A DNA stretch of 64,000 bases from the NCBI GenBank assembly GCA_002633005.1, contig NMRA01000253.1, forward strand, positions 73,251 through 137,250, given 5' to 3'. Origin of the DNA: Phoronis australis. Its lineage: Eukaryota > Animalia > Phoronida. The translations under genes were made by a program, and so were the position numbers. Below, one piece after another: positions 7,645 through 59,976 of this stretch (position 1 is the stretch's first letter; each line of letters begins with the position of its first letter). The notes beneath the pieces were generated by a model. That model saw nothing but the letters and a program-made list of their open reading frames with translations, was not told the DNA's origin and made no database searches.

Positions 7645-7694
7645 AAGTGAACAGTTCTTTTTGGAAGATATGGGTAGCCCTTAAAAGGGCTGTT
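7645..7694 (-). terminator. Histone-type 3' processing cassette (stem-loop + HDE), copy 1
   Basis: Minus strand reads AACAGCCCTTTTAAGGGCTACCCA-tatcttc-CAAAAAGAACTGTTCACTT, starting 19 nt after the ORF stop. 6-bp stem, 4-nt loop, then ACCCA. Confidence 0.8.
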
Positions 7695-7713
7695 GGGTTT
7701 TGTGAAGTGGAAA

Positions 7714-8007
7714 TTAATGTTCCACGGACGGTAACAGATAGTCACTGCCAAAAGCCTGTCGTCGTAGGTCAAGAACTCGGTCTGTTTGTTCCAGCGCGTA
7801 TTCGTAATACAGGGAACGCAGACGTTCGGTGGTATCAAGACGCATACGAAGCTGATAACCGAGAGGCAGGAAATCGTTCTTTACAGCCCTCTGGCGGCGA
7901 ATATTCATCTGAATAATTTCTCTGTCTAGCAGTTTCACTTGAGTACAGGCTCTTTGAAATTTCTCCTGTTCCTGGTGGATTTGAGCATGAAGTGCAGACT
8001 TCTCCAT
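7714..8007 (-). CDS. Uncharacterised 97-aa helical/coiled-coil protein, family copy 1 (most diverged)
   Basis: Intact intronless ATG-TAA ORF. Ungapped alignment to the other copies (QVxxLDRE, IRxxRA, TxxLR, Y70); 35/87 identities to the 44411 copy by manual count. TATA box upstream, stem-loop downstream. Confidence 0.8.
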   Translation of the reverse strand: MEKSALHAQIHQEQEKFQRACTQVKLLDREIIQMNIRRQRAVKNDFLPLGYQLRMRLDTTERLRSLYYEYALEQTDRVLDLRRQAFGSDYLLPSVEH

Positions 8008-8052
8008 CTTGATGTCTATATCTACTATGACCCAAACAGCTCTGGCTTCCGC

Positions 8053-8091
8053 TATTTATACCGTACGCGGTGCGGTGACACGACACGTGAC
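8053..8091 (-). promoter_or_regulatory. TATA box (TATAAATA, 8053-8060) and GTCACGTG E-box (8084-8091) upstream of family copy 1
   Basis: TATA lies ~45 nt upstream of the ATG. The same E-box occurs upstream of the other copies. Confidence 0.5.
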
Positions 8092-9957
8092 AGATCGATA
8101 TCCGTGATAGGTGTGAACAACACCGGTTACCGTGTGGCGGTGTCACAATTATCGCCTGCTGAGTGTACTATTTCATTGTCATAGTGTAATTTCAACACAG
8201 CAGGAACTGACAATGTCCCGCCAACGAAGATATTTTTCACGTTGGCGTTTCCTTACTTTAAAATGTCATGATGTAAGAAAAGACATCTAGTTTGTGACAA
8301 TGCGTTTCAGCGAGTATACTCTTTTTATTTCTACGAAGTGGCTATAATCCGACGTTCTGACCAAGACAAAGCGAACTCAATAACAGACACGAGCATCATC
8401 TAGTGAAGAGCAGTGACTGAATTCTAACTGACCAGGCAACAAAATTTTGCAGATCCCTTGGATTTTTGAAATACGTTTATTGAACAGAATTGAGTACACC
8501 TGGCAAACACAAAAACAACAGAATTTGCCGTTCAATTAAGGAGTGTTGGCTTGTTGAACGTCTGGTTTTGTGAATGCTTAAATTTTTACAAGGTGTAGAT
8601 CGATTCTAGTTTCTTATTTTACGGAAACATTCAAAATCCTGGCAGAGCTGCAGGAAAGCCGTGGAGTCAATAGCAGGATTTGCATGACACATTCGATGCA
8701 CTGGAACTTTAGAATAGACTTTTGCAGTTTCTACAAAATTAACTACAGCTCCTAATAAAATGATTTGGTTGAGGTGACGCTGTTGCAAGTGTGTCTGTTC
8801 GAAACATATACCTGCATGATGTGTCTTGAATCTGTATTTGTCCCGTGAAACACAATGTTTTAATTATATTTCAAGTCGTTTACTCTAGCGGGCTAAAGCT
8901 TGACAGATATGGTGTTACCTCATGGGCAGAACGCAGCAAACTCTACATGTATGGTATTACCCTAGGTCATTCTAGAAACATAATGTCTTCTGTAATCTGT
9001 ATTATGTCTGAAAGCGCATCTAATTTGGGGGCAATGTTAGAGGGTAAATTTTTGACAAACCAGGCAGTCATTACTTGTTCAGGTGACTATCATTTATTTC
9101 CGTTCTTTCGTATGAACATCATTCACAAGAAGAACATTGGACGTTGAGTGGTACTTCGCCTGCATTCTGTCGCCGACCATTTTGTGTCTGTATGCGTATT
9201 TATCTTAAATCCGTATGTCTAAGAAATTTACAGAAATGGGATTATTCGGAAAATTTATATTCACTAGAGGGAGCGCGTGTACTAGTGGTGATAGATTAAC
9301 AGCCTCGATTTCGCGAGCTCTTTAAATACATGGTGAAATGGCTTGTAGCCGTGCCAACTTAACCTGAGATTGCGTGAAAAGGGTGCTTCTATGAGATGAA
9401 GTAAGCACGACCTTATACAAAGGTAAGGTTTGTGATTATTTTAACGATTATTCAACTGATGCCTGTTAATTGAGGTACTCGCTGATGTCGACTTCGCGGG
9501 AGGGAGGGAGAGACTGATATCATGGTGGTCCTGTCGGCGGAAGATTGTTTGGGTCTATATTAAGTTTCACAGTATTACAAAGACAAATAAGTCAAATTTC
9601 CTGCATGGAGTGATATTGTTGGTATTCATAAACCTGTCGGCTGCTTCAGCAGTTAATTTTCCCGTAATGGGGTATACACATGTAAAAGTATTTTTGAGGG
9701 ACAATATTGCTCCTTGCTTAATTTTAAATGCTGGGGCGCATTGTTATCGCGTCGAAGTGGGTGTCCGAGATTTGCGCAAATCTGGCACACAGGAAATCTT
9801 AAGCAGGGGCTTCCATCGAAACAGGAAATCTTGCGTAAAACAGATATCCCGAAGTCGAAAACCAACTCCCACGCCTTCAAGACAACTTATTCGCTACACC
9901 CACTCCTACGGCGCCTAAGCAAAGTCTTAACACACCAAAAACTCTAAACTCTGAACA

Positions 9958-10180
9958 TTATCCTGGGATGAAATCTTTTACACTGTGCTGTGCACGGAAA
10001 CTATTCTCACACGTACAAACCAATTCCTCATAGTTGAAGTAGTCGTCTCCAAACGCCTTTCAACGAAGGTCAGGAACTTGGTCTGTTTTTTCCACCGTGT
10101 ATTCGTAATGCCGGGAACGCAGACGTTCGAAGGAATACAGACTTCTATCCAGCTGATACCTGAGAGACTCCATGCGCCGC
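9958..10180 (-). pseudogene. 5'-truncated pseudogene of the helical family
   Basis: Manual translation MESLRYQLDRSLYSFERLRSRHYEYTVEKTDQVPDLR*KAFGDDY aligns with copy 1 LGYQLRMRLDTTERLRSLYYEYALEQTDRVLDLRRQAFGSDY. In-frame TGA; no stem-loop downstream. Confidence 0.75.
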
Positions 10181-10559
10181 ACTCCGGGAATGGGGACGTG
10201 GGGGGGGGGCTCCATTTGGTGTAGTGGGTCTGTCCGAGAAACAAAAAGTCCAAGAAAATGCTACAGCAGTCCACAGGAATTTGAATGCACAATTCATAGG
10301 GCTGAACGGAAATCTGTTGTTTGTGTGGAAAATTAACACTTTCATGGCAAAATTGAAAGCCCTTTTGTTACAACTTCGAAGTCGAATTGTTCATTTCTTT
10401 AAAACACAGAACTATAAACGATGAATTACCAATGCATATTGTCGTTCGTAGTCACTTGCTTCTAAAAAACCTGCAGTTATTAAAAGTGACGAAGAAAAAT
10501 GCGAATATTCCTGATGACGTGTGAAAACAAGTCTTGTGTGTACATGTACATATAACTAG

Positions 10560-10722
10560 AATACTGAAGATGCATTTTCATGTAAGTCAGTTTCTCGGTC
10601 GCGGTAGTGCCTATAATTTGTGGATATCCGGATAAAGTTACTCGAACAGGGTTGCCAACAACATTCATTTCAGGTTTAGAAATGCCCATATATGTTATTT
10701 TCTCAACACCTTGATCGTCAAA
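10560..10722 (-). pseudogene. Inverted, truncated paralog of exon 1 of the proline-racemase-family gene
   Basis: Minus strand encodes (F)DDQGVEKITYMGISKPEMNVVGNPVRVTLSGYPQIIGTTATEKLTYMKMHLQY versus MDDQGVEKMSSLCISTTEMHTAGDPVRIIESGFPQIIGTTMAEKVTYVKTHLQY. The start codon is lost and homology stops at ~10560. Confidence 0.85.
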
Positions 10723-10828
10723 TTTGAACCCGACCTGTGATAAGTGGTTTGTTATCTGGTGCCCAGGGTATTACGCAAATGTTCCCCAGGTCAAAGATAA
10801 ACGTAAAGTCCAGACACCAGTTTAAAGG

Positions 10829-11312
10829 ATGGACGACCAAGGTGTTGAAAAAATGTCATCTCTGTGCATTTCTACAACTGAAATGCATACTGCTGGTGAC
10901 CCTGTTCGAATAATTGAATCGGGATTTCCGCAAATTATCGGCACTACCATGGCGGAGAAAGTGACGTACGTGAAGACACACCTTCAGTATTTGCGCAAGT
11001 TTTTAACGAACGAGCCTAGAGGCCATCGGGATATGGTCGGCTTCATTTTGGTGGAACCTGAAAAGGATTCAGGTGCCTCCATTGGCGTTATCTATTTCGA
11101 TTCATCCGTTTTTCTCGATATGTGTGGGCACATGACAATTGCGCTATGTCGTTACGCCATCGATAAAGGTCTTGTACCAGCCGTATCCCCACGGACAACG
11201 TTCAAAATCCAAGCACCCTGCGGCGTCATCGAAGCTAGTGCAGTCGTTTCACCTGATGGAAAAACGGGAGTATCCAGCTTCATAAGTGTTCCAGCATTTG
11301 TCTGGAAAACTG
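10829..11312 (+). CDS. L3HYPDH: Proline racemase / trans-3-hydroxy-L-proline dehydratase family protein, exon 1 of 4
   Basis: MHTAGDPVRI, EPRGHRDM, MCGH and APCG motifs. Donor G|gtaagt (phase 1). The spliced CDS 10829-11312 + 13172-13324 + 13968-14110 + 15881-16153 is 1053 nt (350 aa). The symbol marks family resemblance, not proven orthology. Confidence 0.9.
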
Positions 11313-12126
11313 GTAAGTGAAACACCATCATGCTATGTTTGTCTGATAGTACATCTTTGGAAAATGAACTCCACCTCGTCAGAAATTTTACTCACGTGAC
11401 ATCATCCAGTGATTTTTATTGTACTGTACAACGTGGCCCAAGTGGGAAGTCTGAATTGCTCGATGATCACAGACTGAATGAAACGTATTTAAGACCAGGA
11501 ATCTTTTCTTTCAAAAACGCTTCTTGATGCTTTGTTCGTAAGTTTATTGTATTAACAAGTTACAAAGCAATGCAACGCTCTAACATAGTAATAGTCTACG
11601 GCGAACAATCTCAAATAGCTCCACGGATGCAAAATGTTCATCTCCTGTGGCATGTTACGTAACGTTTTAATACAGTTTAAAAATTTTTCTCCCGTGCAAG
11701 ACAATTTCCATTCTCAGGCTCCCCTGTGTTGCCAGCATCCCTCACTCCTTGCACACCCCTCAGCTCACTGTTTGGTTCAGTTGTGCATACACAAAATGGA
11801 CGATACACGAGTCACTTTTCGTTAAGTTTTGGGTTCCCTTATTTTACAAATAAAAATTGACCTTACAAAAATTGGTGAATGCTGGTGACAGGACTCGTTC
11901 CCTATCGATATGCCTTGAAGAAAGCGATATTTTTGCCAAAAAAAGTGGAGACAACAAGAAAGGCACAGTGTTGTGAACGACATGAATAAGTTTGTTTCGA
12001 TTCCAAACTTCAGCAAATATATACGTTTATGAATTGGCAGCCGCTAAGTATTTCGATAATTCAAGAAGAAGACAGCATTTTAATTAGTTTACACATAACC
12101 GTAACATAGAAGCAACGATTATATGA

Positions 12127-12129
<3 letters not shown>

Positions 12130-12181
<52 letters not shown>

Positions 12182-12202
12182 TACACATATACACATATAC
12201 AT
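12130..12202. repeat. (TA)n microsatellite in intron 1
   Basis: Visible dinucleotide run. Confidence 0.95.
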
Positions 12203-13171
12203 ATTAGTACATAAACATTTATGTCCGTGAGTGTCGTTGGCTTGGTGTTCTTAACACTGCATCTAGCTTTTCCAATTTCTTGTTTTCGATGGGCCATGAC
12301 TAGGTATTTGTGAAAACAACAGAATGCTCTCAGCATTTTCAGAATTCTTAACCCTCACGGACTAACCTGCTAAAGTACTACACTTTTGTGTACTTGTATG
12401 TAGGCCCCATGCGTTTACATTCGAAATAAAGCGTTGAAAAGTATTCGATTTTTGCATGCAGTTTAGGTGTGTAAACTGAAACTTCACTCGTAGACGGAGA
12501 AAACTCTCGCACTTGTGCGTGCATTATAGGTTATGTATGACTAATGGACAAGATCTGTGTATTTAGTCAAATATCTGTAGAACTATAGAGGTCAAATCAA
12601 TAAAAGTAAACATTTCCTGTAAGAAGGAAGCTTGTAAACTGTCATTTTTGATTTCGTACCAATCTTTCATTGATGCGGTCACGTGACAATGTCCTTTAGT
12701 ATAATTTAGCAAAATAGAGTTGGATTTGCCCCTTCTACTTTATGACATTTGAAAGTTTATTTTCTGAGGTAATACGTAACCTTAAATTAGAGGAGATTTC
12801 TGTATACTGTTTGATCATTCCTTGCATGTTTTACTTAGATTGGTGGTGAAGTGCCCGTCAGCATCTGCTCCAGACTTTCTGTTTCTCATAAGGGCGTACA
12901 CATGTATGCGCCTACATCCCGATATTGGCAACATCATATCATTGCGCATGAGCATAAAATAAGTGCGCACATACATCCCAAATACATTATATACTTAATT
13001 CGTCTTTCATTTGTGCACAGGAGCAGACGTTGAGGTTCCGAATTTGGCGCAATTTACGGGCGACACCACCCAGTGGTTAAAGATAAAACTGCACTAAAAT
13101 ACGTTTGGGCTTAATACGCGTGCTTGCAATACATGCACTGTAAATTGTATTCGTCATTCTTTTGTGCACAG

Positions 13172-13324
13172 GCGTTGACGTAGAGGTTCCGACTTTGGGA
13201 AAAATCACTGTGGACATCAGCTTCGGGGGAGCCTTTTACGCCATCTTGCCTGCATCCCATATTGGTCTTGACGTCAACACCACCACTATGGAAGACTTGA
13301 CTAACGCCGCCACAGCCATCTCAG
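13172..13324 (+). CDS. L3HYPDH: Proline racemase family protein, exon 2
   Basis: Acceptor tttgtgcacag|; VDVEVPTLGKITVDISFGGAFYAIL; donor G|gtagag; phases match the neighbouring exons. Confidence 0.9.
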
Positions 13325-13967
13325 GTAGAGCTGGGTTATATTGTTTGATTGATCGACAAGGTTATGATGACGAGGTGATGACCACCACGACGACTATGGT
13401 GATGAGGATTATGACGATGATGACGCCAGTGATGACGGTGGCCATGATGATGATGATAGTTACTCAATAGCAGAGGTTACAGTCAACGAGTACACGAAGG
13501 AAAAGCCTGCTTCCATGGAGATAATAGCTTTTCACGGTACTGGGCAAATACATAAATAATTGAGTTGATTTTGGAAAAAAAATAAAGAAATGAATGGTTC
13601 TGGTTTTACGCTAGATCAACATACACGCAAGAAAACAACTAAATATGTTTTAGCGAGAGATGTCATATTTACGAAACTTCAAAGTCCAGGCGTTTTGTTA
13701 TTTTGCTCAGAACAACATTGGTGGGGAATTATACACCTAAAAAGTGAATACTGAGCACCGATCAGGGTACGAAGTCTGTTGTCGCTACATGAGTTATGTG
13801 CGTTATGAACCTTAATGTCATGTTGGACGCAAATTCCGGTCAAATTCCCTCATGCACAAAACAGAAACATATGAGGCAATTTAGATATGCTTAGATGTAC
13901 GCATGCTGTATTGCGGTGTACGTATATACGCACGCTTGCCTGCATAAACATCCCGTTATCATTTCAG

Positions 13968-14110
13968 ATGCGCTCCGAGCCAGCATTCGCCTGCAACATC
14001 CGCTAAATAAAGACATCACGTATCTTCAAGGAACCATACTAACAGACGGAAACGATGAATTCAGCACGCAACCGACGGCGCATACAGTTGCACTTTGCGA
14101 ATATGCACAG
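13968..14110 (+). CDS. L3HYPDH: Proline racemase family protein, exon 3
   Basis: Acceptor atttcag|; HPLNKDITYLQGTILTDG; donor CAG|gtaaag (phase 0). Confidence 0.9.
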
Positions 14111-15880
14111 GTAAAGTCTTTGTCTACCGTTTGCTAAACACTCAACATGTCTGTAGTACAGACACTCGTCCAATAAGGTAAAATGCCGTGACTTGACCCA
14201 CCTGGTCGCTTTATACGTAGTCAAATTTTCCAAATATACACCATAATTACAATTTTAATCTGTGTCGAACAAAGGCAAGGCTTTATTTCAGCACGTGTTC
14301 AGCGTGTCTACAAAATAAACTTAGGTAAGGCTATTAATGGTATCATAGATTCTCTTAAGTACACATACACTGTACACATGTAATTGGTCCTTTTTTACTT
14401 CGATGTCGCTGTCACATGCTGTTTCTGAAGGTCTACACAGGCTTAGGATTGGAGTACGCGTAATGCAAGAACGTGTCATTCTCTGCACGTACGCCACGTT
14501 TCTCAAAGACACAGGCCATGTCTCGAGCCTGTCCATGACAAAAATTTATGTCCTCCAGAACAACTAAAACAAGTGTAGGAAAAACATCACCACATCCGGC
14601 AAAATTTACTAGAGATGCTAATGACCGTCATGCAAGTGCATTGTGGGACAATGATTGTTGTTTAAATAACATTTGCGCAAAAAATGATGCATTGGACCTG
14701 TGCTTTCAACAAAGGTGAGCACATGTGACACAGTGTTTTCCGCCGTATCAAGTCACCAAGTTAAGGTAATGTCACCGGATGTTTACTGGCCGAAACTGTC
14801 CCATAATGCATTTGAGGACCAGCAGCGCTGTTGATGACATCTCCAGAGCTGCTTTTGGCGGCCGAAACGAATTGCCATCGTGGAAAGGACAATTTGAGAC
14901 AAATCGGTGAAAGCTAACTCGTGATTTCAAGGTAAAGGTCGTAAAAATAAATTGAAATACTCAAAAGAACCTTTCTGAATCATTGGAACACTTTAAACAA
15001 TATCAAATAAGAATACGAATTGTGTTTATTTTCCATATTTTATATTAGAAGCATAAAACAGAAGGTATATTCTTTTTCGTGCGGCATTCGTGCCCCTGTC
15101 GACTGGTGGTTGATTACCACGACCATTCGTGGTGAATAATCACTGATTACCATCATGAGTAGCACGACTGATCGCTGGCCGCTCAAAGTAGTCGCACCAC
15201 CAGTAATACCAGTAATGATTGCTTCCAAGATTTAGCGTACCAACGATCATGCAACCTGTCCCCCGATTATCTGGTGTACTACTTAGTAGCACGACTACTT
15301 CATAGTTAAAAGAAAGCCGCGTACAGTTGTCGTGCTACTACCAGTTCGTGGACATGTCTTGCGATTAAATATTCATACGATTCCGTGCAGCCAAGGATTC
15401 ACACGGTGACTTAGTTTTATGGACAAAGTTGAGACTAGGAAAAGAGATTGATTTGCAGATGTTTGTATGTAGGAGTATGCGAAGAAATGGAAGGAACGTG
15501 ACAACGTTCCCAAAATTAACGTTAGATTTTACAAATAAAAGTAATTTCTAATCTTTAACGCTTGGTAATTGCATGCTTCCTTGTACTAGTCACTGTCTCA
15601 TATCCTTATTATTAGGTAGTCCATCATTGTAAAGCAGACAAACTTGTATCTATGCATTTTGAGTTACAGTGCTAAAACCAATGACAAAATGAACAATATC
15701 TATGTTGCATGTGTTTTCCTTATTAATCTTGTCCGGAGTGCAAGACAGTTTGAAATGTAGGTGAGCCATGCGATGTATTTTCTTCCATTATGGACCTAGT
15801 CCTATCTACACGTAAATGTATGATGTTAACCAAAAAGTCACAATCTAAAAAAACGATGTTGAATGTTACACTGTTTGCAG

Positions 15881-16153
15881 GTCCCACGAGCGCCTTGCGG
15901 ATCAGGGACCACCGCTCGCGTAGCGCTCCAGTATCACATGCAGAAGGTCAAATTGAACGAGACAAGAATATTCGAGAACGCCATCACTAAGACTCGATTC
16001 AACGCCACTCCACGGACAGAGACGAAGTGCGGAGATTTTCCAGCTGTACACGTTGAAATAGAAGGCAGAGCGTTTTATACGGGTTCCGCGACATTCACGT
16101 TTGAAACTGGTGATAGATTAGGAGCAGGGTTTATTCCTGGAGTTAAAATTTAA
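15881..16153 (+). CDS. L3HYPDH: Proline racemase family protein, exon 4
   Basis: Acceptor ctgtttgcag|; VPRAPCGSGTTARVAL...VEIEGRAFYTG...GF; TAA stop. Confidence 0.9.
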   Translation, partial: VPRAPCGSGTTARVALQYHMQKVKLNETRIFENAITKTRFNATPRTETKCGDFPAVHVEIEGRAFYTGSATFTFETGDRLGAGFIPGVKI

Positions 16154-24721: not shown

Positions 24722-27496
24722 TCACAGGATATACATTGATGACAGGACAACCAAAACAGTTTGCGCCAACAATAGGTGTGATGCGAGTCGCAATGAACTG
24801 CTTAGGTTTGGAACAGCTTCCACAGTTTCAAAGGTTCCAACCTCGTTCGCAGCTATACACTGCACACCTTTAGATCTATGGACGTTGTCAAGAAGTGTGA
24901 AATTTGCTGACCCTTCAACACGTAATTCGGAGAGCAGAGATGTCGTGAATTCATGCACTTCACCAGCAGGCGAAATAATTGTGATATTTGGTGCAGGGTC
25001 TCCCTCAGAAGAACAAGACACTGCAAAGGTGCCACCTACAATTTCAAATTTGATTTCTGGAACAGAAGGCTTTGCGCATGTCAGGTTGATATTCACGAAC
25101 GTCTCAATTTTCGGATTCGAGAAAAATGGTGTATGACATGATGGTATATCGACTCGTGTCAGTACATTTCTTTTGTACTTTGCGATGTGATCTTGCAAAT
25201 CTCTCAATAAACAGTTACAATGAACAGGGTTGTGATTACTTTTAAATTGCAAACGAGACTGTTTATTTATGACTTGGTCAATGAAGATCTTGGGTAACAG
25301 CTGTATTTGGTTGTATGCCACGTCCAAAGTGTACATATTTGGGAGATTTGGTAGAGCCATATTTTCGATTCGTTTGATCAAGTTGTTACCCAAGGCTAAA
25401 TAACGAATATTGATGAGCGACTCAAATAATCTTTCTGGCACATGTTTGATGTGGTTGTGACTCAAATTGAGGTTGAATATGCCTCTTAGATTAGCAAACG
25501 CGCTCTCATGTATTGAGGAAATTTCATTGTAACTCAGCGAAAGATGCCCTAAAGCTTGAAGGGAGCCACTGAAAGTATATCTTGTAATGGTTTTAAGACG
25601 GTTATTACTGAGATCCAATTGACCCAACATTATCAGGTCTTGGAAACAATTTTCTTCAATTTTCACTATTTCGTTTCTTGACAAATCAATAACGTTTAAT
25701 CGTTTTAAATTGCTGAACAAACTCAACTGTAAGTAGTTCAGCCTATTACGTCTTAGTGACAATTTTTCTAAGCGTGGCAATACCTGAAATGTTCCTCTCT
25801 GGATGTCTACTATCAGATTGTCCCATAAATTTAAGTCCGAAAGATAGCTTAGACCGACAAATGTATCATTTGTCAGTTGCGTGATTTCGTTGGTTTTCAA
25901 AGACAAGTAAGACACCATAGTACTGTCAAGATGCACAAACGACTTATCTTCAATACGAGAGATTTTGCTACGAATTGTTATTCGTTCAGCCCGTACTTGC
26001 CGCATGATGGACATTGACAGGACAAAGGAGTCATTTCCTAAATATTCTAACAGTAATTCCTCTGCAATGACATTATTTTGTACAGGTCCAGGTAAGTTAA
26101 ATTTAATGTTTACAGACTGAATGGACATAGCCGGAAGTTGTGAGAGTGAATGTACGTACATGAACAATTCTGTTACCGAACAGTACTTGAATACGTCATA
26201 TCGCAATGCCGAAAATTCACTAACGAAGATACTTAATCGGTTTAATGATTTAGTGGGTTTAAAAAGTGAAGCACGTAAGCTGCTGATATTGTTTCCACCC
26301 AGAAATAGTTGTTCGAGTTGGAATAAAGTGGCAAACGCGTGGATACTAAACGCCACTATGTCATTGTCGGACAGATCAAGGTAAGTTAGCCGAGATAAGC
26401 CGCGCAAAGTTTCATTTGTAACAGCTGTCATTGCATTACTGCATAAATCTAGACTCCAAATATTAGGATTTTCCATCCAGTTTTGTTCAATCAGACCGAT
26501 CTCGTTACCCTCAAAATTCAGGTTAGACAGAAAAGGAACACCATCTAACGCACCTTTTCCTATCGTTTTCAGTCGATTGCGATCAATATAAAGAATTACT
26601 AATGACGGCAGATGTTCAAACATTTTCTTTTCCAGTCGTTCGATGAAATTACTACCGAGGTCCAATGATGTGAGGCGAGACAGCCCTTGGAAGGACGTTG
26701 ACGTGATGTTCGCTATTTTGTTAAACCTAAGCGTGAGATCCGCAAGGGAATTAAGGTTTCTAAACGGCGAGTCCACTAATCCTTCGATTTGGTTTGATTC
26801 CAGACTGATGAGCTCAGCGTTCTCGAGGCCATCTAACAAGTTTTGCTGCAATGTCGACAGTTCGTTACGCTCCAAAAAAACTTCCAAAACATTACTCCTT
26901 CTACTGAAAGCCGAGTTGTTAACGCTTGTAAATTGATTGTCCGTCAAGAACAGCGAAAATGGTGTGGACACTGGCGGAAGACAAGATGGCGGGAATGAAG
27001 AAATTAAATTGGATCGCAAGTCTAACACATTGAGATTTGACATTTCTGAGAATGCGTTTTCAGATATCGTCTGAATTCTGTTAAACTGTAGCTCCAATTT
27101 CTCCACGTTTGTCAAACGAGTAAAGACACCATCACGCACCTCGGACATGTGGTTGTTTCCAAGACTAACAATCCTCAGATTTGCCAGTTCCGTGAACGCT
27201 GTCTCAGAGATTGTCTGAATGTTATTACCGTCTAGTTCTAATTTTGAGACTTTTACTAGGCCATCAAAAATTCCACCTGGAACGCTTGTGATGTGGTTGT
27301 CTTTGAAACTTGCCAGAGAAACACTACCAAAGTTCAAACCGCTAGAAAACATGTCCATTATATCTTCCAATCCACAAGACTCGACAACAAGATTGCCACC
27401 GCGTGCAACGACATTTTTATTCGTTGTGCATGCTTGAAAAGGTCTAACCAGAGAACACAATCCCAAAATCAGGATCAAACAGGTGTTAAAATCCAT
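24722..27496 (-). CDS. Intronless extracellular LRR protein with LRRCT and Ig-like domain, signal peptide and hydrophobic C-terminus (924 aa)
   Basis: N-terminal hydrophobic signal; more than 20 LxxLxLxxNxI repeats in two blocks; NPVHCNC LRRCT; Ig-like VSCSSEGDPAP...QCIAANEVG; terminal hydrophobic stretch with no cytoplasmic tail. Confidence 0.93.
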   Translation of the reverse strand: MDFNTCLILILGLCSLVRPFQACTTNKNVVARGGNLVVESCGLEDIMDMFSSGLNFGSVSLASFKDNHITSVPGGIFDGLVKVSKLELDGNNIQTISETAFTELANLRIVSLGNNHMSEVRDGVFTRLTNVEKLELQFNRIQTISENAFSEMSNLNVLDLRSNLISSFPPSCLPPVSTPFSLFLTDNQFTSVNNSAFSRRSNVLEVFLERNELSTLQQNLLDGLENAELISLESNQIEGLVDSPFRNLNSLADLTLRFNKIANITSTSFQGLSRLTSLDLGSNFIERLEKKMFEHLPSLVILYIDRNRLKTIGKGALDGVPFLSNLNFEGNEIGLIEQNWMENPNIWSLDLCSNAMTAVTNETLRGLSRLTYLDLSDNDIVAFSIHAFATLFQLEQLFLGGNNISSLRASLFKPTKSLNRLSIFVSEFSALRYDVFKYCSVTELFMYVHSLSQLPAMSIQSVNIKFNLPGPVQNNVIAEELLLEYLGNDSFVLSMSIMRQVRAERITIRSKISRIEDKSFVHLDSTMVSYLSLKTNEITQLTNDTFVGLSYLSDLNLWDNLIVDIQRGTFQVLPRLEKLSLRRNRLNYLQLSLFSNLKRLNVIDLSRNEIVKIEENCFQDLIMLGQLDLSNNRLKTITRYTFSGSLQALGHLSLSYNEISSIHESAFANLRGIFNLNLSHNHIKHVPERLFESLINIRYLALGNNLIKRIENMALPNLPNMYTLDVAYNQIQLLPKIFIDQVINKQSRLQFKSNHNPVHCNCLLRDLQDHIAKYKRNVLTRVDIPSCHTPFFSNPKIETFVNINLTCAKPSVPEIKFEIVGGTFAVSCSSEGDPAPNITIISPAGEVHEFTTSLLSELRVEGSANFTLLDNVHRSKGVQCIAANEVGTFETVEAVPNLSSSLRLASHLLLAQTVLVVLSSMYIL

Positions 27497-27758: not shown

Positions 27759-29173
27759 ATTCATTTGGACGTTGCCCGAGAAAGAGGAAGGGCACTAACC
27801 CAATATTCACGAGATAAAGCCTCGTGATGAAAACACTTATTATAACTATATCTATGCTTTACAGTTTTCTGCCAAATCTTAGCGTATAATTATTCAACCA
27901 GCCCAGTCACAACCCATTCCTGTTGCGATTACCCTACATGCTAAACATTCAACATTCCAACCGGTACGCAGTTTTCAGGCTCTTATTACTTGATTAAAAA
28001 CACAATAAAAATAAAACACTAACTTTCATTTATCTTATGAAACCTGAAGCCATCCCAAAAGTCCACTCGGCCAAGTTCGCAGATTTGCATTCTGTCTTCA
28101 GACACTGCACTGGAGACAAGGGTGCCAGTTTTCTTCATTCTGACTACCATCGTCGTCCTCATTGGCTCCCAATTATGCCACTCATACAAGAGTACAGCAG
28201 ACGCCGCCCACTAGGATTAACGATCTTAGAAAAGCCAGAGTAATTCCCACATGTGACTTTGGTTAGCGGACATTTTGGAAATCATTCACGAGATGATACA
28301 ACTGGGTACTTGCCACTGTAGAGATAAAATAAAGTGTGGACAATGTCCACGCCAATCTTTTGTTACTGTTGATTTATTTCTAAGGCATTTTCTAAACTTA
28401 GAAGTGATTAAGAGCCATTGCCTGACAATACCAGGCAAAATGAGATATCGCGAGAATATGACGCGCCACGGAAATCGATTTCCTCGATCTACTCTCATTC
28501 TTTTAATTTAAAAGTTCAATTTCTACCTGTTTTTCCATCGGACTTGGCATGCTGGGAGAGTCGAAACTCCCAGTTGAAGTTTCAGTGGCTTATTTTTCTG
28601 TTATGACATCCAATATCCATGTCGTGTATTAAATATAGATTATTACATGGCGAAGTCGTTATCTCCCTATATCTAGAGCCCGAGTGTGCTATTTTTAGAC
28701 TAAACAATGTTACATGTGCATAACTGAATGGGACATCGGGTCCATTTCTAGTCGCTGCATTCTGTAACAGCAAATGGAAGTTCAAAGATCACTGGTTTTT
28801 TACTTTTTAAATTTCGGCTTCGAAATTGTGAATCGTGCGCGCACTGAATCACTTCTACAACACAATGGAGTCCGTACCGTTCAAACAATTCTTGTTTCAT
28901 GAGATTAAAGGCGAAGGCAACCTTTTTCCATGTCATTTTGAGCTAAAATAAGTTTGGTTGGTTATCCAAGACATATTTTCCACTTAATTACAGCTTTTCG
29001 TAATTTTATTAATTACTCGTCCGCTACTCCGGAAGTGACGTTTTAGGAGGCAAGCATTTCGCGTCAATTTCTTTTCATATAGTCTGACTGTGAGAGGTGC
29101 CGAGTCAGTCATTGTTCTACCTCGGTTGTGTTAAGTTCCGTCGTCGTTTGCTTTCATTTACTAGTCAGTCAAC

Positions 29174-29980
29174 GTGCCACACTGTTGCTGCGTACCCGGA
29201 TTTACTAATTATCGGCTCACGCGCGCTTTAGGAGTACCTTTGCATCGCTTTCCGATGGATGACACACTTCGCCGTACTTGGCTCGTTCGTGTGAAGAACG
29301 CAGCGTTACCCGTCCATGCAACGAACAAAGCAGTGGAGAATTATCTTGTGTGTGGCAAGCACTTTCTGTCGTCCGACTACGAAAGGGATATGTACGCTGA
29401 ACTGATGAAGGTCCCTGCGAAACAACGTCTGAATAAGGATGCCATGCCGTCTGTGTTGATTCCCGGCAGTGCCCCATCGCCACCCCCGAGAAGTGCGTGA
29501 CTTTTTGAAGCGAGAAGCCTCGCGAGCTGTGGCCAGTACAGTGACTTGAGCCAGTGGAGGCACTTTATCTACTGTCACCCGTGCCTCCGAACGTACCCCC
29601 AGAGCGTGCAATTCCTGGAACCAGTATTGATTCGCCCTGTGCTGTTTTCTCCAGCCCAGAGCCTCTAAGCAGCCCTGCAGCGATATTGAGTAGCGGGAGT
29701 GATTACAGGCTCAGTTCGATACCAGTGAAGAGGACAGTTCGTCGTCCAGTGAACAGATTGGTGAGCCAAACTTTGATAAGTTTATTGTGGATATGTCTAA
29801 AGTGTTGGAGCTATTTAGAAGGTGCCAGGTGTGTGGCGAGGGAGTCACACCACACGGTGTAAGCAGTTTGGGTGCTCAGGTCACCATCCAGTGGGAGTGT
29901 GTCGCGAGACACTCTGGCAAGTGGGACAGTTGTTCCTCTGTCCGTGGTACGCCGGAGGTCCACTTAACCATATCCAGTAG
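29174..29980 (+). pseudogene. THAP-domain transposase N-terminal remnant
   Basis: PHCCCVPG...LHRFP...W...VCGKHF...RLNKDAMPSV is a THAP domain with a GTG start. A downstream CQVC...WECVARHSGKWDS Zn-binding segment lies in a different frame. No DDE core. Confidence 0.8.
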
Positions 29981-29989
29981 TGGCTTGGC

Positions 29990-30271
29990 CTCGTCGAACT
30001 CTGAACAGCACAAGCATTCCATTGAGGTAGGCATAACAACGCACACAGTGCATTTGCACCAAGATGTGTCACCACAACTGTCCTCAGTAGCCGCCTCGTT
30101 TCTCTCAACAGCTGCCTGTGCCTGTGCGTGCTCTGCCTCGCTATACTCGGGCTCAAACATGTACCCACCCACTGAATGTCCGTGAAAAAATTCCTCGTCA
30201 CCACTGCTGTGAACAAGGTCTCCGTCACTCACACTACTGTCACTGTGATACGGGTTGCCGACTCCAGCCAC
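29990..30271 (-). pseudogene. KolX / P2X7-ballast-like cysteine-rich protein remnant
   Basis: GYMFEPEY...DTSWCKCTVCVVMPTSMECLCCSEF matches the WCxCxxC...E.xCC motif. It is truncated where it meets the transposase remnant. Confidence 0.75.
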
Positions 30272-31744
30272 TTTCAGTTTGCAACACACTAAATAATCTC
30301 TAAATCCAACGTAGTTGAGTTCTCTACTAACCTATCTTGCCGCAGAATACTCGCCGATGGAAAGTGGTGGCGACAATCGTTGAAAAACAGCACAAAACAA
30401 AAGTAGAATAGAACAGATTCGCACGGTAAAGTCAACGTAAAACAAAGTGGCGGGAAACGCTTGCCTCCTAAAACGTCACTTCCGGAGTAGCGGACGAGTA
30501 ACTTATAAAATTACGAAAAGCTGTAATTAAGTGGAAAATATGTCTAGGATAACCAACCAACCTTTTTTAGCTCAAAATGACATGGAAAAAGGTTGCCTTC
30601 GCCTTTAATCATGCAAACCAGAGAATGTTTGTCAGGTCAGATGCCATGGATGTTTAGCTAAAGTACATGTACTGTGTTTCTGTTGGCTCTCTCTCTAGCA
30701 CGAAACAGAACTGCAACAGATCACGTGACACCAACCCAGACATAATCTGATAATGCCAAGTAAACGATAATCCGTCGAAAGTAAGGTCTACACTTCAGAT
30801 GTCGTAGACTCATTATCGAATTTTTGTTTTCCTAATGAGAATTGTGAAATTACCTTGTTTATATTGATCACATTGGTAACACGCCCGCTCATCAGCTTTC
30901 GGCCGTTATACAAGAAGTAGGGATTTTGCAAAAAGCCGATTATACGTCTTCATAAGAATGCCATGTAATCAGGAAACAACATCAGAAATCAACTGAGCTT
31001 CCCGTTGAAGTATACAGTGTAGGCCAATAGCATGGTTATCTATCTTAATATACTTTATGATAGACCAATTGCAATTGCAGGTGACGTTACAGAGACGTGG
31101 GTGCACTTTTGTCACTTAAGGCATGGATGACCTTGTTTGTATAAAGTAGTTCACAAAACAATATGATAAAATAAATGACATTGTACGAAACGCAGGGGAA
31201 GATTTAAAGAAATTGCGCTGTCGGTAAATACATCATTGAGCTTGCGAGAAAATACCCTCTTCAGTCCTCTAATTTACTTTAACGCTTATCCTGGGCTGGT
31301 ATTAGAAAGAACAATGTCGAAACTATATTTCTATTTCGAGTCCCGATTCAGGAGGTTGTGTCCCGGAGCCTCTCCAAGAATACAGCCTGGATTAGCATTC
31401 GAGTCTGGTACTTTGTCATTCAAGGATGTGGTAAACCGAAATATTTAAATCAGCCAAGCATAAAAAGCGTACATTTTGAAACCTTAAGTGACATAAGTTG
31501 AGTAATTTGAAACATAACTCAGATAAACGAGTGTTTGTGAACACCATGGCCACTGTGGTTTTTACAATGCACTCCTCTTTCTTAGTTGCATCTCATAAAG
31601 GTTGTTATAAAGTTACAGCATGATGTCATTGGAATCTTTTCGTTAAAAGAGCAAGCATAAACATACTAACGTATTGCGAAGAAGCGAAGAAATTCCATTG
31701 TGATACATTCTTAAGTCACTTTCAGCAACTGTCAATCTCGTTTT

Positions 31745-44314: not shown

Positions 44315-44364
44315 AAGTGACCAGCTCTTTTGGTAGTTGTGAGTAGCCCTTAAAAAGGGCTGTT
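44315..44364 (-). terminator. Histone-type stem-loop + HDE (variant with 5-nt loop and ACTCA)
   Basis: Minus strand AACAGCCCTTTTTAAGGGCTACTCA-caactac-CAAAAGAGCTGGTCACTT. Confidence 0.7.
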
Positions 44365-44410: not shown

Positions 44411-44674
44411 TTAACCAAAAGCATGTTGACGTAGATTAAGAAGCAGACTCTTTTGTTTCTCCTCATATTTGTGGAATGCGTTGCGAAGTCCGTGCGTTGT
44501 AACGATCCGCCGCTGCATTTGATCTTTACGAACTTGGTCACATCTCTTCACTGCCCTCAGGTAACGAATCCTCATATCATCCAACTCTCTGTCCAGGATT
44601 TGTACTTGTGTATGTGCGCGAAGACTTTTCTTGTGAGCTTGGTATATTTTGGCTTGGATATCGGGTTCCGTCAT
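44411..44674 (-). CDS. Helical family protein, subtype A (87 aa)
   Basis: Intact intronless ORF MTEPDIQAK...AFG with the family motifs. Confidence 0.8.
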   Translation of the reverse strand: MTEPDIQAKIYQAHKKSLRAHTQVQILDRELDDMRIRYLRAVKRCDQVRKDQMQRRIVTTHGLRNAFHKYEEKQKSLLLNLRQHAFG

Positions 44675-46740: not shown

Positions 46741-46790
46741 AAGTGAACAATTCCTTTTGGAACATTTGGGTAGCCCTTAAAAGGGCTGTT
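46741..46790 (-). terminator. Histone-type stem-loop + HDE
   Basis: Minus strand AACAGCCCTTTTAAGGGCTACCCA-aatgttc-CAAAAGGAATTGTTCACTT, 22 nt after the stop. Confidence 0.8.
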
Positions 46791-46812: not shown

Positions 46813-47094
46813 TTATTCAAACAACCGATCTCCTAAACCCTTGAGACGAAGGAGGGATAGAGACAGGTGGGCCTTTCTTTTACCGTAGTGGAAAAACATG
46901 TCGCGCAGCCCGTGCGTGATCATCCTGCGCCGGTGAAGCTGTTCCCGGCGAACTGAATTTCCACTTCTCAGAGCCCTCTCGTAGCGTATGTCGGTATCTT
47001 GCAGCTCTCGATCCAATAATTCGACTTGCTGTGCTGCTTTCAAACATTTTGCCTGTGCGTCGTGCAGTTGCTCATCAAGTGTAGAATCGTCCAT
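46813..47094 (-). CDS. Helical family protein, subtype C (93 aa)
   Basis: Intact intronless ORF MDDSTLDEQL...DRLFE. Confidence 0.8.
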   Translation of the reverse strand: MDDSTLDEQLHDAQAKCLKAAQQVELLDRELQDTDIRYERALRSGNSVRREQLHRRRMITHGLRDMFFHYGKRKAHLSLSLLRLKGLGDRLFE

Positions 47095-47165
47095 CGTGGC
47101 GAGAACGAACGTGAATGTGACCTCAAATGTCAGTATACTGATTCTAATATAAAGACAACGTTGTT

Positions 47166-53758: not shown

Positions 53759-53807
53759 AAGTGAGCAGCTCTTTTGGTACTTGTGGGTAGCCCTTAAAAG
53801 GGCTGTT
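53759..53807 (-). terminator. Histone-type stem-loop + HDE
   Basis: Minus strand AACAGCCCTTTTAAGGGCTACCCA-caagtac-CAAAAGAGCTGCTCACTT, containing the canonical AAAGAGCTG HDE core. Confidence 0.85.
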
Positions 53808-53853
53808 GTTTTTATTGTGGACTTGAGGATTCCACAGAAGTCGTCAATCTGCC

Positions 53854-54117
53854 TTAACCAAACGCCTGTTGACGTAGATTAAGAAGCAGACTCTTTTGTT
53901 TCTCCTCATATTTGTGGAATGCGTTGCGAAGTCCGTGCGTTGTAACGATCCGCCGCTGCATTTGATCTTTACGAACTTGGTCACATCTCTTCACTGCCCT
54001 CAGGTAACGAATCCTCATATCATCCAACTCTCTGTCCAGGATTTGTACTTGTGTATGTGCGCGAAGACTTTTCTTGTGAGCTTGGTATATTTTGGCTTGG
54101 ATATCGGGTTCCGTCAT
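53854..54117 (-). CDS. Helical family protein, subtype A (87 aa), second copy
   Basis: Intact ORF, one amino acid different from 44411-44674. Confidence 0.78.
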   Translation of the reverse strand: MTEPDIQAKIYQAHKKSLRAHTQVQILDRELDDMRIRYLRAVKRCDQVRKDQMQRRIVTTHGLRNAFHKYEEKQKSLLLNLRQQAFG

Positions 54118-55639: not shown

Positions 55640-55689
55640 AAGTGAACAATTCCTTTTAGAACATTTGGGTAGCCCTTAAAAGGGCTGTT
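55640..55689 (-). terminator. Histone-type stem-loop + HDE
   Basis: Minus strand AACAGCCCTTTTAAGGGCTACCCA-aatgttc-TAAAAGGAATTGTTCACTT. Confidence 0.8.
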
Positions 55690-55710
55690 TTTTATATATG
55701 TCTGAATTAC

Positions 55711-55991
55711 TCATTCAAACAAGCGATCTCCCAAACCCTTACGACGAAGAAGGGATAGAGACAGGTGGGCCTTTCGTTTACCGTAGTGGTAAAATATGTC
55801 GCGCAGCCATGCGTGATGATCATGCGCCGGTGAAGCTGTTCCCGGCGAACTGCATTTCCACTTCTCAGAGCCCTTTCGTAGCGTATGTCGGTATCTCGCA
55901 GCTCTCGATCCAATAATTCGGCTTGCTCTGCTTGTTTCAAGCATTTTGCCTGGGCGTTGTGCAGTTGCTCATCAAGCGTAGGATCCTCCAT
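55711..55991 (-). pseudogene. Helical family subtype C with a 1-bp deletion (pseudogene or sequencing error)
   Basis: 281 nt versus 282 nt in the paralogs. gcagccatg at 55803-55811 versus gcagcccatg in the 59695 copy shifts the frame after ITHG. Confidence 0.75.
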
Positions 55992-58900
55992 CGGGGCGAG
56001 AACGAACGTGAATGTGACCTCAAATGTTAGTAGACTGATTTTGAGTTCAGCGTTCTAATTCGCAGTTAGCCAAGCTGTGTTCAGTAGCACGTGACACCAT
56101 GACGTCCTGTGGTTTGGTGTTTTACCGAGGTCGGATTAACGGTTAATGGTGATGAACTGGATTACAATATTCTCAATTGTTGCGTTTCACACTAGGCTCA
56201 TTATCTGAGTGACTACAAGTGTGGAAGTCTTCTGTTGGCTTGGCGTGTTGTTGGGTAATTCAGTGTATATGAACTCCAAAACCACGATGACGATGCCTAG
56301 AATGAAACGTAATCGATAACCCTTCTATAGTATACATGTAAAACACGATTACACACAACTTCAAGACGACGATGTATTAATATTCAGTGTTTTGATTCTT
56401 TCCTTATTGCGTAAATCAATAAATATTAAGTATTACTATTTTTGATGAAAAAATATTTCTATATTTGAAAAAATCTTTCGTAAATTTTCAAAGAAACCGC
56501 AGCCGCCTTGTGTTTTGATAGGCACGTAATTGCTATTAAACGTTATTTCATTCAAACATCAATCCTGCATGTATCTTTCAGTAATTATGCATGTGTAACA
56601 TACATGTAGGTCTAGGTGTATAGACATGAGTCCAATTAAAATTGTTGCCAAAAGTTTTTGATATTGTCTTTACCAAAAATTACATATACTAGGAATTTCG
56701 TTATTGTTCCAGCCGTGGTGCTCAACTACATTTAAGCATGCGCAAGCTTTGGAATAACCTATACGGTCAAGGCCATCACATTTTTCTGCATTCTAATCCT
56801 ATGAACAAGCCCATCAAAGCGTTATTTGAATGAATATGAATGCAGGAAAAAGACAGAAATTCTACGTTTAACCAATTCACGTAACACAGTTGAAAAAACA
56901 GTAAAAGATTACAAAAAAAGATCTTTAATTTACAAGCTAGTGAACATCCGTTTTAATCAACAGATTATGATAGAGTATCCAAACTTTTACAGTAACGTGA
57001 CGCGCAGGACTTTAAATGATTATTTCTCAATATGTAAATTTAATTCAGTACATCAGCGTCAAATTTTAGGATAGTATTGCACCGCAAATAGTTACGTACT
57101 TAGTAATTAGCATTGAACATTTGACAGGAAAATACCAAAACAGAAATTAAAACATTTCGAACAGTGCTTCTTATTCTTGGTTGAGAAAGTTAGTACCCTC
57201 ATGATTCCTTACATACGTCTTCTTGTATCTTTGCGCCATTACAGGTTGTCGCCAAAAATAACGTTCATTAAACTTTTATTTTTAAAATAATTGAATGCGC
57301 TGCACAAATGAATTATTACGACGAGAAATTTGCTTATTCGGTTTTGTGTTTTCTAAAAAGTGTAACACCTAGGTAGGAATGTTTTTCAACAACAGTATAG
57401 TGTTGCACTGGTCTTTTGTCAAGAGGGTTAATGTAAATGGTCAGGAATGAAACATTGCAAGATTGCAAACTCCTTCAAACCACACAATAGCTGTGTCACG
57501 TGTGCGTACAGAATTCCAAAAGATTAAAATGAAACGTCGAAAAAATGAAGTGACATGTTCCACATATTAAAATGGGCGGAATAGATTTGTTGAAAAATTC
57601 GACACATGTTGAAGCAAAGCAGTAAACCATCCGCTTCAAAAGATTGAATTACTAAATTAAAACAATTGAACATGATTTTTTATTAAAAAATCAAATTTAA
57701 AACATTTTAGTTAGGTTTGAACATTGCTTCAAGACATCAAATTGCACTATGATCACATTTCCTAAGTTATAGTTATAAAAAATCACATACACTGTAGCAT
57801 TGCTTGAAGGAAATATTGATGGAACCTTTCTACAATTACTTCAGATGGATGGAGTTATTAAAATAAGTGTTCATCTGTGTCGTACACTGCATAGGATATT
57901 TTCAGTGAACAAAGTTAATTTTAGTGACCCAATAGAACGCTGAATGATGACGTCATTCTGTTGAAGCTTTAAACTTTAGAAATTCCAAGTAATATAATTA
58001 ATTCTGCCAACAACATTCCATGTGACCGATACATCGGTCACTTGCTTGTTTACAGTATTCTCCTCACGGTCTGACGCGCAATACAGCAGAGGAATACAAC
58101 GGATTAAAATCGCTCCCTTTAATGACACGACTTTTATCGCATGCCTGCCACTGAGATAATGAGAACTCTTAAGGAGCCCCAGTTCTGCGACGGACCATAA
58201 TCCATGTCGTTACTCCTCACCCATAATCCAACTGGGTCGTTCAACAAAAATTGTTATATTAATAACGGTAAATTAAACAAAGACCTTGTCGGAACCTGCT
58301 ATGATGCTACCGACAAATATGTGCACTCAACCAAACATATCCTTTTTGACCCCGCCATTCGTAGCCTTGCACAAATTGACCTATCGCCAGGATTTTGAGT
58401 GGCGGCTTAACTGACCAATTAGAGAGCACAATTCTTGACACACCTTCGTGTCCAAGCTGCCATTTTACAGTACAACAACACGTTAGCAGGTACAACATTT
58501 AGCCAGGGGGCGGAGCTTGCGATAGCTTAATTGACAGCTACATACGACACATCTTCACTGCTACACAAACTGGCATGAAATAATGAATATGCAACATACA
58601 AGTTACAGGTGTACACTGATGGAAGCTAGGGAAAACCAATACTTTAAATTTTAATTTTAAACTTTTTCCTTTGATAAACATAGTCTCAATTGTCCCTTAC
58701 TTCCTCGCATTCGCTTAGTGATCACAATCGGCTCTGCTTGGTTATCCAACCACGCACGGTACAGTTAGGCTGCGGCCGCTTCTAATTTGCAGTGGAAAAG
58801 TATTAAAATCTAGGGATAGGCCAAGCTTTGGGATCAGTTTTAGGTTGGTGTTGCAAGTACAGAAGTAGGCTCAGTGAACGTGATTTGTTTGTATTTGTGA

Positions 58901-59619
58901 ACATGTTGAATATGAGAAAAGACCACTTGCTCGACTGTGGCTGCACTTTCCTGTATGACTGTATCCCCCTGTTGCATTTCTACACTGCTGGGTAGCGAAT
59001 GAGAAACTGGCGGCGATTTAAGGCAGCCCTCAAACAAGCCAGATTTGAAAAAAATTAATTTCGTAACATTAGATTTTGACCACATTTTTGGAATCTGTAA
59101 GAAAGTTGCTTTCAGAAACTAATGGTGACTTAAGTCGTGCATCGGCAAGAAAGTGGTGGTCCTGGAAAGAAAAGTGCCGATTTTGTGATTTTTGTCACTT
59201 TTTGCTTGATATGCTTTTCAGTAAAAGTGAAATGGTGAAAATTATAAGACACGATCAGCGGCAGACGAGCAATCTCAAAATGCGCACGCGTTGTTTACCC
59301 ATGTTACTGTAGGTGCTTGCTACTTGGTGTTTGACAACCGGAATCGGACAACTTGGTGATTTCATTATCTAAAATTATCACGATAGGTTTAATGTTTCAA
59401 ATTAAAAATCACAATGTTGGGGTGCCTGAAGTGTTATATGTTTAATTGAATAATAAACAAATGCATAACTTTGTTAACATTTGTACAACACCTGTTTAAA
59501 GGGAGGCTACATTTTCATTTTACATATTTTATTCGGCGGAAATGAAAAGCCGCTATGTGTTTTATCCCTAAGCACGTTTTGTCATAAATATGTCGTCAGG
59601 TTTACGGATCCATCACTAA

Positions 59620-59669
59620 AAGTGAACAGTTCCTTTTGGAACATTTGGGTAGCCCTTAAAAGGGCTGTT
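59620..59669 (-). terminator. Histone-type stem-loop + HDE
   Basis: Minus strand AACAGCCCTTTTAAGGGCTACCCA-aatgttc-CAAAAGGAACTGTTCACTT. Confidence 0.8.
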
Positions 59670-59694
59670 TTGATCTGGTGCATGTCTGAAATTC

Positions 59695-59976
59695 TCATTC
59701 AAACAAGCGATCTCCTAAACCCTTGAGACGAAGAAGGGATAGAGACAGGTGGGCCTTCCGTTTACCGTAGTGGTAAAACATGTCGCGCAGCCCATGCGTG
59801 ATGATCATGCGCCGGTGAAGCTGTTCCCGGCGAACTGCATTTCCACTTCTCAGAGCCCTCTCGTAGCGTATGTCAGTATCTCGCAGCTCTCGATCCAATA
59901 ATTCGACTTGCTCTGCTGCTTTCAAGCATTTTGCCTGGGCGTTGTGCAGTTGCTCATCAAGCGTAGGATCCTCCAT
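59695..59976 (-). CDS. Helical family protein, subtype C (93 aa)
   Basis: The ATG at 59976 (MEDPTLDEQL) is homologous to the starts of the other copies. The longer track ORF to 60075 begins at a non-ATG codon in promoter sequence. Confidence 0.8.
   Translation of the reverse strand: MEDPTLDEQLHNAQAKCLKAAEQVELLDRELRDTDIRYERALRSGNAVRREQLHRRMIITHGLRDMFYHYGKRKAHLSLSLLRLKGLGDRLFE

Follow-up and report, generated by a model that had tools for sequence, protein, structure and literature searches.

The window analysed here, 64,000 nucleotides (nt) of contig NMRA01000253.1 of the phoronid Phoronis australis, carries on its minus strand six copies of a short gene, each followed by a cassette resembling the one that ends replication-dependent histone mRNAs, i.e., a stem-loop and a putative histone downstream element (HDE; Table 1). 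The original prediction of six intact open reading frames (ORFs) held for five of them, while copy B2 is one base short near position 55800, which shifts its frame. The prediction of a six-member cluster was right in the number of copies, but the five found at 44 to 60 kb are recent segmental duplicates (94.6% over 1657 nt for the A pair, 72 to 87% for the B copies), so that the window provides only three independent examples, namely copy 1, subtype A, and subtype B. The protein of copy 1 shares 35 to 41% identity with the other window proteins, in agreement with the value of ~40% proposed between copy 1 and subtype A, and synonymous sites between the subtypes are near saturation (dS above 1.6).

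Table 1. Gene copies, 3' cassettes, and associated signals of the family in the 64,000-nt window
Feature	Position	Strand	Details
Copy 1 ORF	7714..8007	-	97 aa, intact, intronless
Copy 1 TATA box	8054..8060	-	53 nt ahead of ATG; four TGTCA/TGACA motifs further upstream
Copy 1 stem-loop + ACCCA	7671..7694	-	24-mer 7671-7694; stem 7676-7691, 22 nt past stop; predicted 3' end 7671; Rfam 36.4 bits
Copy 1 HDE-like element	7645..7664	-	AAAGA core, terminates in CACTT
Decayed copy 1 fragment	10036..10164	-	covers the 3' half; in-frame stop; cassette absent behind it
Subtype A copy A1 ORF	44411..44674	-	87 aa, intact
A1 AATAAA	44368..44373	-	12 nt ahead of stem
A1 cassette	44315..44364	-	stem-loop 44345-44361 (5-nt loop), 49 nt past stop; ACTCA, HDE-like element; unreported by Rfam
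Subtype B copy B1 ORF	46813..47094	-	93 aa, intact
B1 cassette	46741..46790	-	24-mer 46767-46790; stem-loop 46772-46787, 25 nt past stop; ACCCA, HDE-like element, AAAGG core; predicted 3' end 46767; 33.8 bits
Subtype A copy A2 ORF	53854..54117	-	87 aa, intact
A2 AATAAA	53811..53816	-	12 nt ahead of stem
A2 cassette	53759..53807	-	24-mer 53784-53807; stem-loop 53789-53804, 49 nt past stop; ACCCA, HDE-like element; predicted 3' end 53784; 28.8 bits
Subtype B copy B2	55711..55991	-	frameshifted; pseudogene or assembly error
B2 cassette	55640..55689	-	24-mer 55666-55689; stem-loop 55671-55686, 24 nt past stop; ACCCA, HDE-like element; 35.1 bits
Subtype B copy B3 ORF	59695..59976	-	93 aa, intact
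B3 cassette	59620..59669	-	24-mer 59646-59669; stem-loop 59651-59666, 28 nt past stop; ACCCA, HDE-like element; predicted 3' end 59646; 33.0 bits
Decayed subtype A fragment	62732..62866	+	no cassette behind

The 24-mer formed by the stem-loop and its ACCCA flank, said from the start to be identical in five copies, matched the window exactly five times, always on the minus strand, and none of 100 shuffled versions of the window contained it. The sixth copy, A1, had rightly been set apart for its 5-nt loop and ACTCA flank. The Rfam model Histone3 (RF00032) matched five of the six copies with 28.8 to 36.4 bits, leaving A1 unreported. All six carry a G-C pair at stem position 2 (G2-C) and a U at loop position 3, and the basal stem pair is A-U. 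Folding predictions place the hairpin in each of the six 3' untranslated regions (UTRs), although the folding z-scores of the whole UTRs were modest (-1.3 to -3.2) and add little weight. An AAAG core begins 14 to 15 nt beyond the stem in every copy. Pairing with U7 was scored using a mouse anti-U7 15-mer, an oligonucleotide printed in a passage of PMC5435866, and not the organism's own U7; on this scale copies 1, A1, and A2 scored 8, a value reached by 3 to 9 of 1000 shuffles. Given this resemblance, which concerns the distal part of the element, the TCACTT end pointed out by the original prediction probably marks the distal limit of the stretch that pairs with U7.

None of the five intact window proteins showed a significant Pfam match. 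A word-index homologue search with them returned nothing, whereas the full HMMER scan recovered 564 relatives at the 50% cluster level (E ≤ 0.001), and the window profile matched the core family profile with a probability of 99.6%. The named relatives (Lineus, Tubulanus, Nucella, Dreissena, Mizuhopecten, Priapulus, Lepeophtheirus, and Mya), annotated as hypothetical or uncharacterised, fall in nemerteans, molluscs, a priapulid, and a copepod; most members are unnamed. No relatives were found in prokaryote genomes or viral contigs, and the 24-mer was absent from the latter. A search for longer or fused forms, which is a weak test, gave one match, a Mya arenaria gene model that merges three tandem copies and brings no extra domain. 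The ORFs are under purifying selection, with dN of 0.043, dS of 0.155, and dN/dS of 0.28 between B1 and B3, and a median dN/dS of 0.32 among 148 non-independent homologue pairs (6 above 0.5). The AlphaFold2 model, computed from an 85-row alignment headed by the homologue P0052 rather than by a window protein, has two antiparallel helices (residues 2-58 and 62-108; predicted local distance difference test, pLDDT, 88) followed by a low-confidence tail, so that the family protein is predicted to be a two-helix coiled-coil hairpin. Tails of 15 amino acids or more were often acidic, with at least 25% Asp/Glu in 73 of 121. The model resembles known antiparallel coiled-coil hairpins (the ESCRT-III/PspA core, prefoldin, the ING N-terminal domain, and PI3K iSH2) in having two long antiparallel helices, with Z of 10 to 12 over 90 to 110 residues, but none of them rises above the helical background (225 chains with Z ≥ 8, Foldseek E ≥ 0.26, identity 5 to 17%). 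Among the matches listed, the fold searches returned generic hairpins with no histone at the top, and the best ESM Atlas scores (0.86 and 0.80) are leads without a named family.

Genes that are short, intronless, and arranged in tandem, that end in a stem-loop and an HDE, and that adjoin H3 in some homologous loci could be ordinary replication-dependent histone genes encoding histones that have diverged strongly, H1 variants, or protamine-like proteins. We give this explanation almost no credence. The core histone family PF00125 matched neither the window proteins nor 69 homologues, the linker histone H1 family matched none of the window proteins, and no Pfam family at all, linker histones included, was detected in the 69 relatives scanned (of 150 listed). 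The probability of a profile match to H3 in hhalign was 0.2%, and the window proteins contain just 4 to 9% lysine (alanine, 6 to 8%). The 12 weak matches of the PDB sequence search, none below E 0.01, include no histone, and the two long helices of the model do not form a histone fold. Because the defining protein test fails, the family is not a histone gene family, as the original prediction had held. No histone gene was found in the 64 kb window either, using tblastn with a fetched H3 and Pfam on 111 ORFs.

The generality of the cassette was addressed in homologous loci chosen from metagenome contigs (marine DNA) by a peptide motif alone, the 3' end being no part of the selection. Narrower alignments (A3 and A4) were used for this search, A2 being too diverse. 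The motif matched 121 stretches, of which 96 were confirmed and 78 loci kept; genes that are multicopy and intronless are over-represented in assemblies of this type. The loci contain 81 family ORFs, and 78 remained once three were dropped (one open, two with less than 100 nt of downstream DNA). Across all 78 loci (164,258 bases), Histone3 gave 50 matches at E ≤ 0.1, all on the sense strand: 48 of them followed a family stop, at a median distance of 35 nt and in 45 cases within 70 nt, and the other 2 followed histone H3. As all five Histone3 matches of the window likewise follow family ORFs, the cassette is tied to these ORFs in the window and in the loci. Of the 78 ORFs, 50 had a strict hairpin pattern no more than 100 nt past the stop; with a relaxed pattern and a limit of 110 nt the number was 56, corresponding to 34 of the 50 clusters at 90% identity. 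Controls with the relaxed pattern gave 2 of 78 in antisense and a mean of 1.1 (maximum, 4) over 200 shuffles.

The downstream element provides evidence of another kind, since the AAAG core was demanded by no filter. It begins 12 to 15 nt beyond the stem in 32 of 33 cluster representatives, against 2.2 in shuffles (maximum, 8 over 500 shuffles). This core complements UCUUU, the U7 box, for which a passage of PMC5054213 states universal conservation. When the stems of the 33 representatives and 3 window copies were compared (36 rows), compensatory changes were found at four of the six pairs, and the basal pair was A-U in 6 rows. The locus L022, which has its hairpin at +18, was left out of the corresponding alignment (A5). 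The original prediction of a local, clustered family was correct regarding the cassette and too narrow in scope, as the cassette is spread over most branches of the family tree. Two oddities were noted among these hairpins: a tandem pair of stem-loops (+22 and +44) behind a single family ORF (L042:1370-1440), and two stem-loops of 35.9 and 36.5 bits located 173 nt past the stop, far outside the usual distance (L072:887-932 and L075:1236-1281).

According to passages of bioRxiv 10.64898/2026.10.14.759114, SLBP, which is the stem-loop binding protein, binds the histone hairpin via G2-C and loop U3, the small nuclear ribonucleoprotein (snRNP) of U7 pairs with the HDE, and CPSF73 cleaves five nucleotides beyond the stem. 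The presence of the cassette on intronless family members therefore makes SLBP binding and U7 snRNP cleavage likely in the family. SLBP would bind the family hairpin and the U7 snRNP would pair with the downstream HDE-like element; following the known pathway, cleavage would occur 5 nt beyond the stem, at the predicted 3' ends of Table 1, and the mRNAs would show SLBP-dependent translation and fast decay. Hairpin-less sister copies would have switched to polyadenylation, in the way replacement histones stand to replication-dependent ones. We consider it probable, on the strength of these comparisons, that the hairpin-bearing members are processed by SLBP/U7 into short mRNAs lacking poly(A). 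The original prediction had made the same proposal, and two of the objections it had named, divergent histones and a repeat unlinked to the ORFs, were checked with the above results, which favour the proposal in both cases. At the RNA level, the family likely works like histone genes.

Several observations speak against processing by SLBP/U7. The Rfam gathering score (34 bits) is reached by just two of the six window copies (36.4 and 35.1) and by only 7 of the 48 homologue matches; the genuine H3 hairpins in the same loci score just 24.6 and 27.7 bits. Stem pair 4 is unpaired in 11 of the 36 rows compared. The hairpin filter required G2-C, loop U3, and five pairs, which biases the homologue counts in favour of the cassette, and the invariance of G2-C and loop U3 among homologues is no evidence because the filter demanded both. 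All homologue 3' ends come from metagenome contigs, with no 3' UTR of a named genome among them. In the window, the B copies have an AAAGG core and scored 4, 4, and 6 with the mouse 15-mer, not better than shuffles, the frameshifted copy B2 retains a perfect cassette, a canonical TATA box is present only at copy 1, and the proteins lack the acidic tail. The three family copies linked to H3 (see below) have no detected hairpin, although in one of them (L031) the DNA continues for only 77 nt downstream. In a sample of 18 to 19% of three raw RNA runs with the same species label (library selection and tissue unspecified, unique-gene control uncovered), no read fell on copy 1, and the 667-nt bins of A1 and B1 had mean depths of 0 to 1.3 in both directions and no read-end pile-up (85% likeness). 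Reads of this kind and number neither support nor refute SLBP/U7 processing. Finally, and missing from the original prediction, both subtype A copies have an AATAAA shortly ahead of the stem (Table 1), and AATAAA or ATTAAA occurs 68 to 276 nt downstream of four window copies.

These poly(A)-like signals would be expected if the mRNAs were mainly polyadenylated, the hairpin acting only as a place inside the message where SLBP binds for its storage, translation, or decay, or if both ends were made. Human histone pre-mRNAs carrying both signals exist, as reported in part of PMC9756948, and a hairpin is absent from the 110 nt past the stop in 22 of the 78 homologues. Nevertheless, an internal SLBP site needs no purine core at a fixed distance of 12 to 15 nt, and AATAAA is rare behind the hairpin-bearing homologues: within 150 nt it was found in 4 of 56 hairpin-bearing ORFs versus 10 of 22 hairpin-less ones (P = 0.00025), or, by cluster, in 4 of 34 versus 7 of 16 (P = 0.024). 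Predominant polyadenylation of the family thus seems improbable to us, and cleavage by the U7 machinery remains the preferred explanation. Subtype A, with AATAAA ahead of its stem, may use both processing routes; human H4 is described in PMC9756948 as having a poly(A) signal upstream of its hairpin.

The family splits in the same way as replacement histone variants and dual-signal genes do (human H2AC18 and H4, in passages of PMC9756948), comprising hairpin-bearing members, hairpin-less members with AATAAA, members with both signals (subtype A), and apparently intron-bearing members (L027 and the copepod type). Unlike replacement histones, its protein is not a histone, and the poly(A) status of its members is deduced from sequence. 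In a quick, midpoint-rooted tree (84 rows, 104 columns, window rows on long branches), hairpin-bearing rows were found in most branches, one of them grouping with a Dreissena protein (support, 97). A fully supported clade joins a block of 11 hairpin-less rows with 8 hairpin-bearing ones. The hairpin label switches eight times on the tree, at least three of these switches being forced by strong branches. The simplest reading, not proven given that the tree is unrooted, would be an early gain of the cassette and several later losses, with polyadenylation taking its place. A GT directly following the conserved motif is where L027 stops, and many of the copepod-type predictions end at one site, which suggests that intron-bearing members exist. 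A well-supported subfamily (P0203, P0201, P0236, P0248, and relatives) is common to Priapulus, Dreissena, and Lepeophtheirus, its copepod-type members apparently having an intron at one site.

The neighbourhoods of the homologues were informative in one lineage. An H3 gene with its own stem-loop lies 1.1 to 1.4 kb upstream, on the same strand, of three hairpin-less copies (L025:1-470, L031:1-150, and L044:566-1060), i.e., in 3 of 78 loci mostly 1 to 4 kb long, and 5S rRNA genes lie beside the family gene in L007 and L030, which belong to the same clade. With both neighbours in a single clade, the family gene is likely part of histone/5S repeats there. Such surroundings would also suit a selfish or passenger sequence, a mobile element or a histone/5S hitchhiker, that captured a histone 3' end and spread by duplication. 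The tandem copies, decayed fragments, and frameshifted copy of the window point in this direction, as do homologue neighbourhoods that differ from one another (between the exons of other genes, beside H3, or beside 5S rRNA) and the direct repeat of ~490 nt (69%) that flanks copy 1 (7056-7540 and 8382-8865). The repeat may be what is left of an old tandem unit; no inverted repeat was found around copy 1. However, the cassette has been kept despite the dS between subtypes, blastn of the window DNA matched none of the loci, the stems show compensatory changes, and dN/dS is about 0.3. In addition, no transposase, reverse transcriptase, or viral domain was found among the 295 neighbouring ORFs scanned in these short loci, where a non-autonomous element could escape notice, and viral contigs hold no relatives. 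We therefore regard a selfish origin as very improbable, and conserved processing by SLBP/U7 as the better explanation of the cassette. Among individual neighbourhoods, one hairpin-bearing copy is enclosed by exons of the opposite strand that carry FTHFS and THF_DHG_CYH_C domains (L014:313-3699), and one hairpin-less copy between two other genes (L004:1-20240), which, by eye, we take to be those of glycogen debranching enzyme and CSN5.

A TATA box was found in 40 of 67 homologue upstream regions (41 matches versus 5.6 expected), with an initiator-like TCA motif 26 to 31 nt after it in 41 of 65 counts. TGTCA/TGACA occurred 137 times in 59 of the 67 promoters, versus 58 expected (maximum, 77), with the enrichment lying 20 to 110 nt ahead of the TATA box, and CCAAT boxes were barely enriched (40 versus 26 expected; maximum, 38); kinship among the homologues inflates all these counts. 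TGTCA is also present in the 200 nt upstream of all six window copies. The motif resembles a TALE-homeodomain (TGIF/Meis) site. In a passage of PMC3494694, CTGTCAA is used as a TGIF target site, in work on an insect TGIF that is expressed in testis and ovary. The promoter motif is no more than a pointer to germline expression. Histone-type regulation, the H3 linkage in one clade, the acidic tails, and this motif are the grounds for a tentative guess, more doubtful than not, that the protein is a small adaptor or chaperone with a basic hairpin and usually an acidic tail, mass-produced with histones in germ cells or cleaving embryos.

Compared with replication-dependent histone genes (RF00032, HDE, SLBP, U7 snRNP, and CPSF73), the family is likewise intronless, short, and often tandem, and shares the 6-bp stem, the 4-nt loop, G2-C, loop U3, the A-rich 5' flank, the ACCCA-like 3' flank, and the purine core ~12 to 15 nt downstream. 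The distance from stop to stem (22 to 49 nt in the window; median of 35 nt in homologues) is like that of histones, for which passages of bioRxiv 10.64898/2026.10.14.759114 give a median of 30 nt across 2,281 metazoans and a usual range of about 25 to 60 nt. The family differs in its coiled-coil hairpin product, the absence of a histone gene from the window, the A-U basal pair of the window copies, the TGTCA-rich promoters, and its 3' processing, which is predicted here.

In passages of PMC4604434 and PMC5054213, histone mRNAs are presented as the only ones ending in a stem-loop without poly(A), and SLBP crosslinking and immunoprecipitation (CLIP) in human cells as yielding no non-histone target. 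No exception to this histone-only rule appeared in three 2026 preprints (passages of two and a term search of the third). A literature search of listings and abstract starts, with subscription papers and bioRxiv supplements outside its scope, revealed no description of this family, nor any non-histone gene that carries a working histone 3' end, and six locus tags of named homologues retrieved nothing. The rule rests on few model species; a full signal conserved across many lineages would, if true, break it and mark a protein that has to be supplied in step with histones. That poly(A) RNA-seq and annotation overlook such genes would be explained as well, and the family would offer a natural series of gains and losses between two modes of mRNA ending. 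The broadest version of the proposal, to which we assign slightly less than an even chance, is that of an old invertebrate family that is a natural non-histone substrate of SLBP/U7, forming a hidden class of poly(A)-less mRNAs with polyadenylated paralogues, co-regulated with histones and sometimes incorporated into histone repeats, and encoding a so far unrecognised chromatin-supply partner in germ cells or early embryos.

Other genes of the window encode, according to Pfam, proline racemase, leucine-rich-repeat, THAP, and SAM domains. A multi-exon gene of the proline racemase family (10829-16153, plus strand) lies between copy 1 and the main cluster. It is followed by a single-exon gene (24722-27496, minus strand) whose product of 924 aa has leucine-rich repeats, an Ig-like end, and what looks like a signal peptide; no reads fell on the 5' part of the gene in the runs sampled. 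The element at 28882-30631, in which inverted ends of 196 nt (92%) enclose THAP and P2RX7_C-like ORFs, attracts many RNA reads that stem from divergent copies. At 35146-36215, a tandem duplication of 540 nt (97%) spans a single N, with one SAM-like exon per unit, and may be an assembly artefact.

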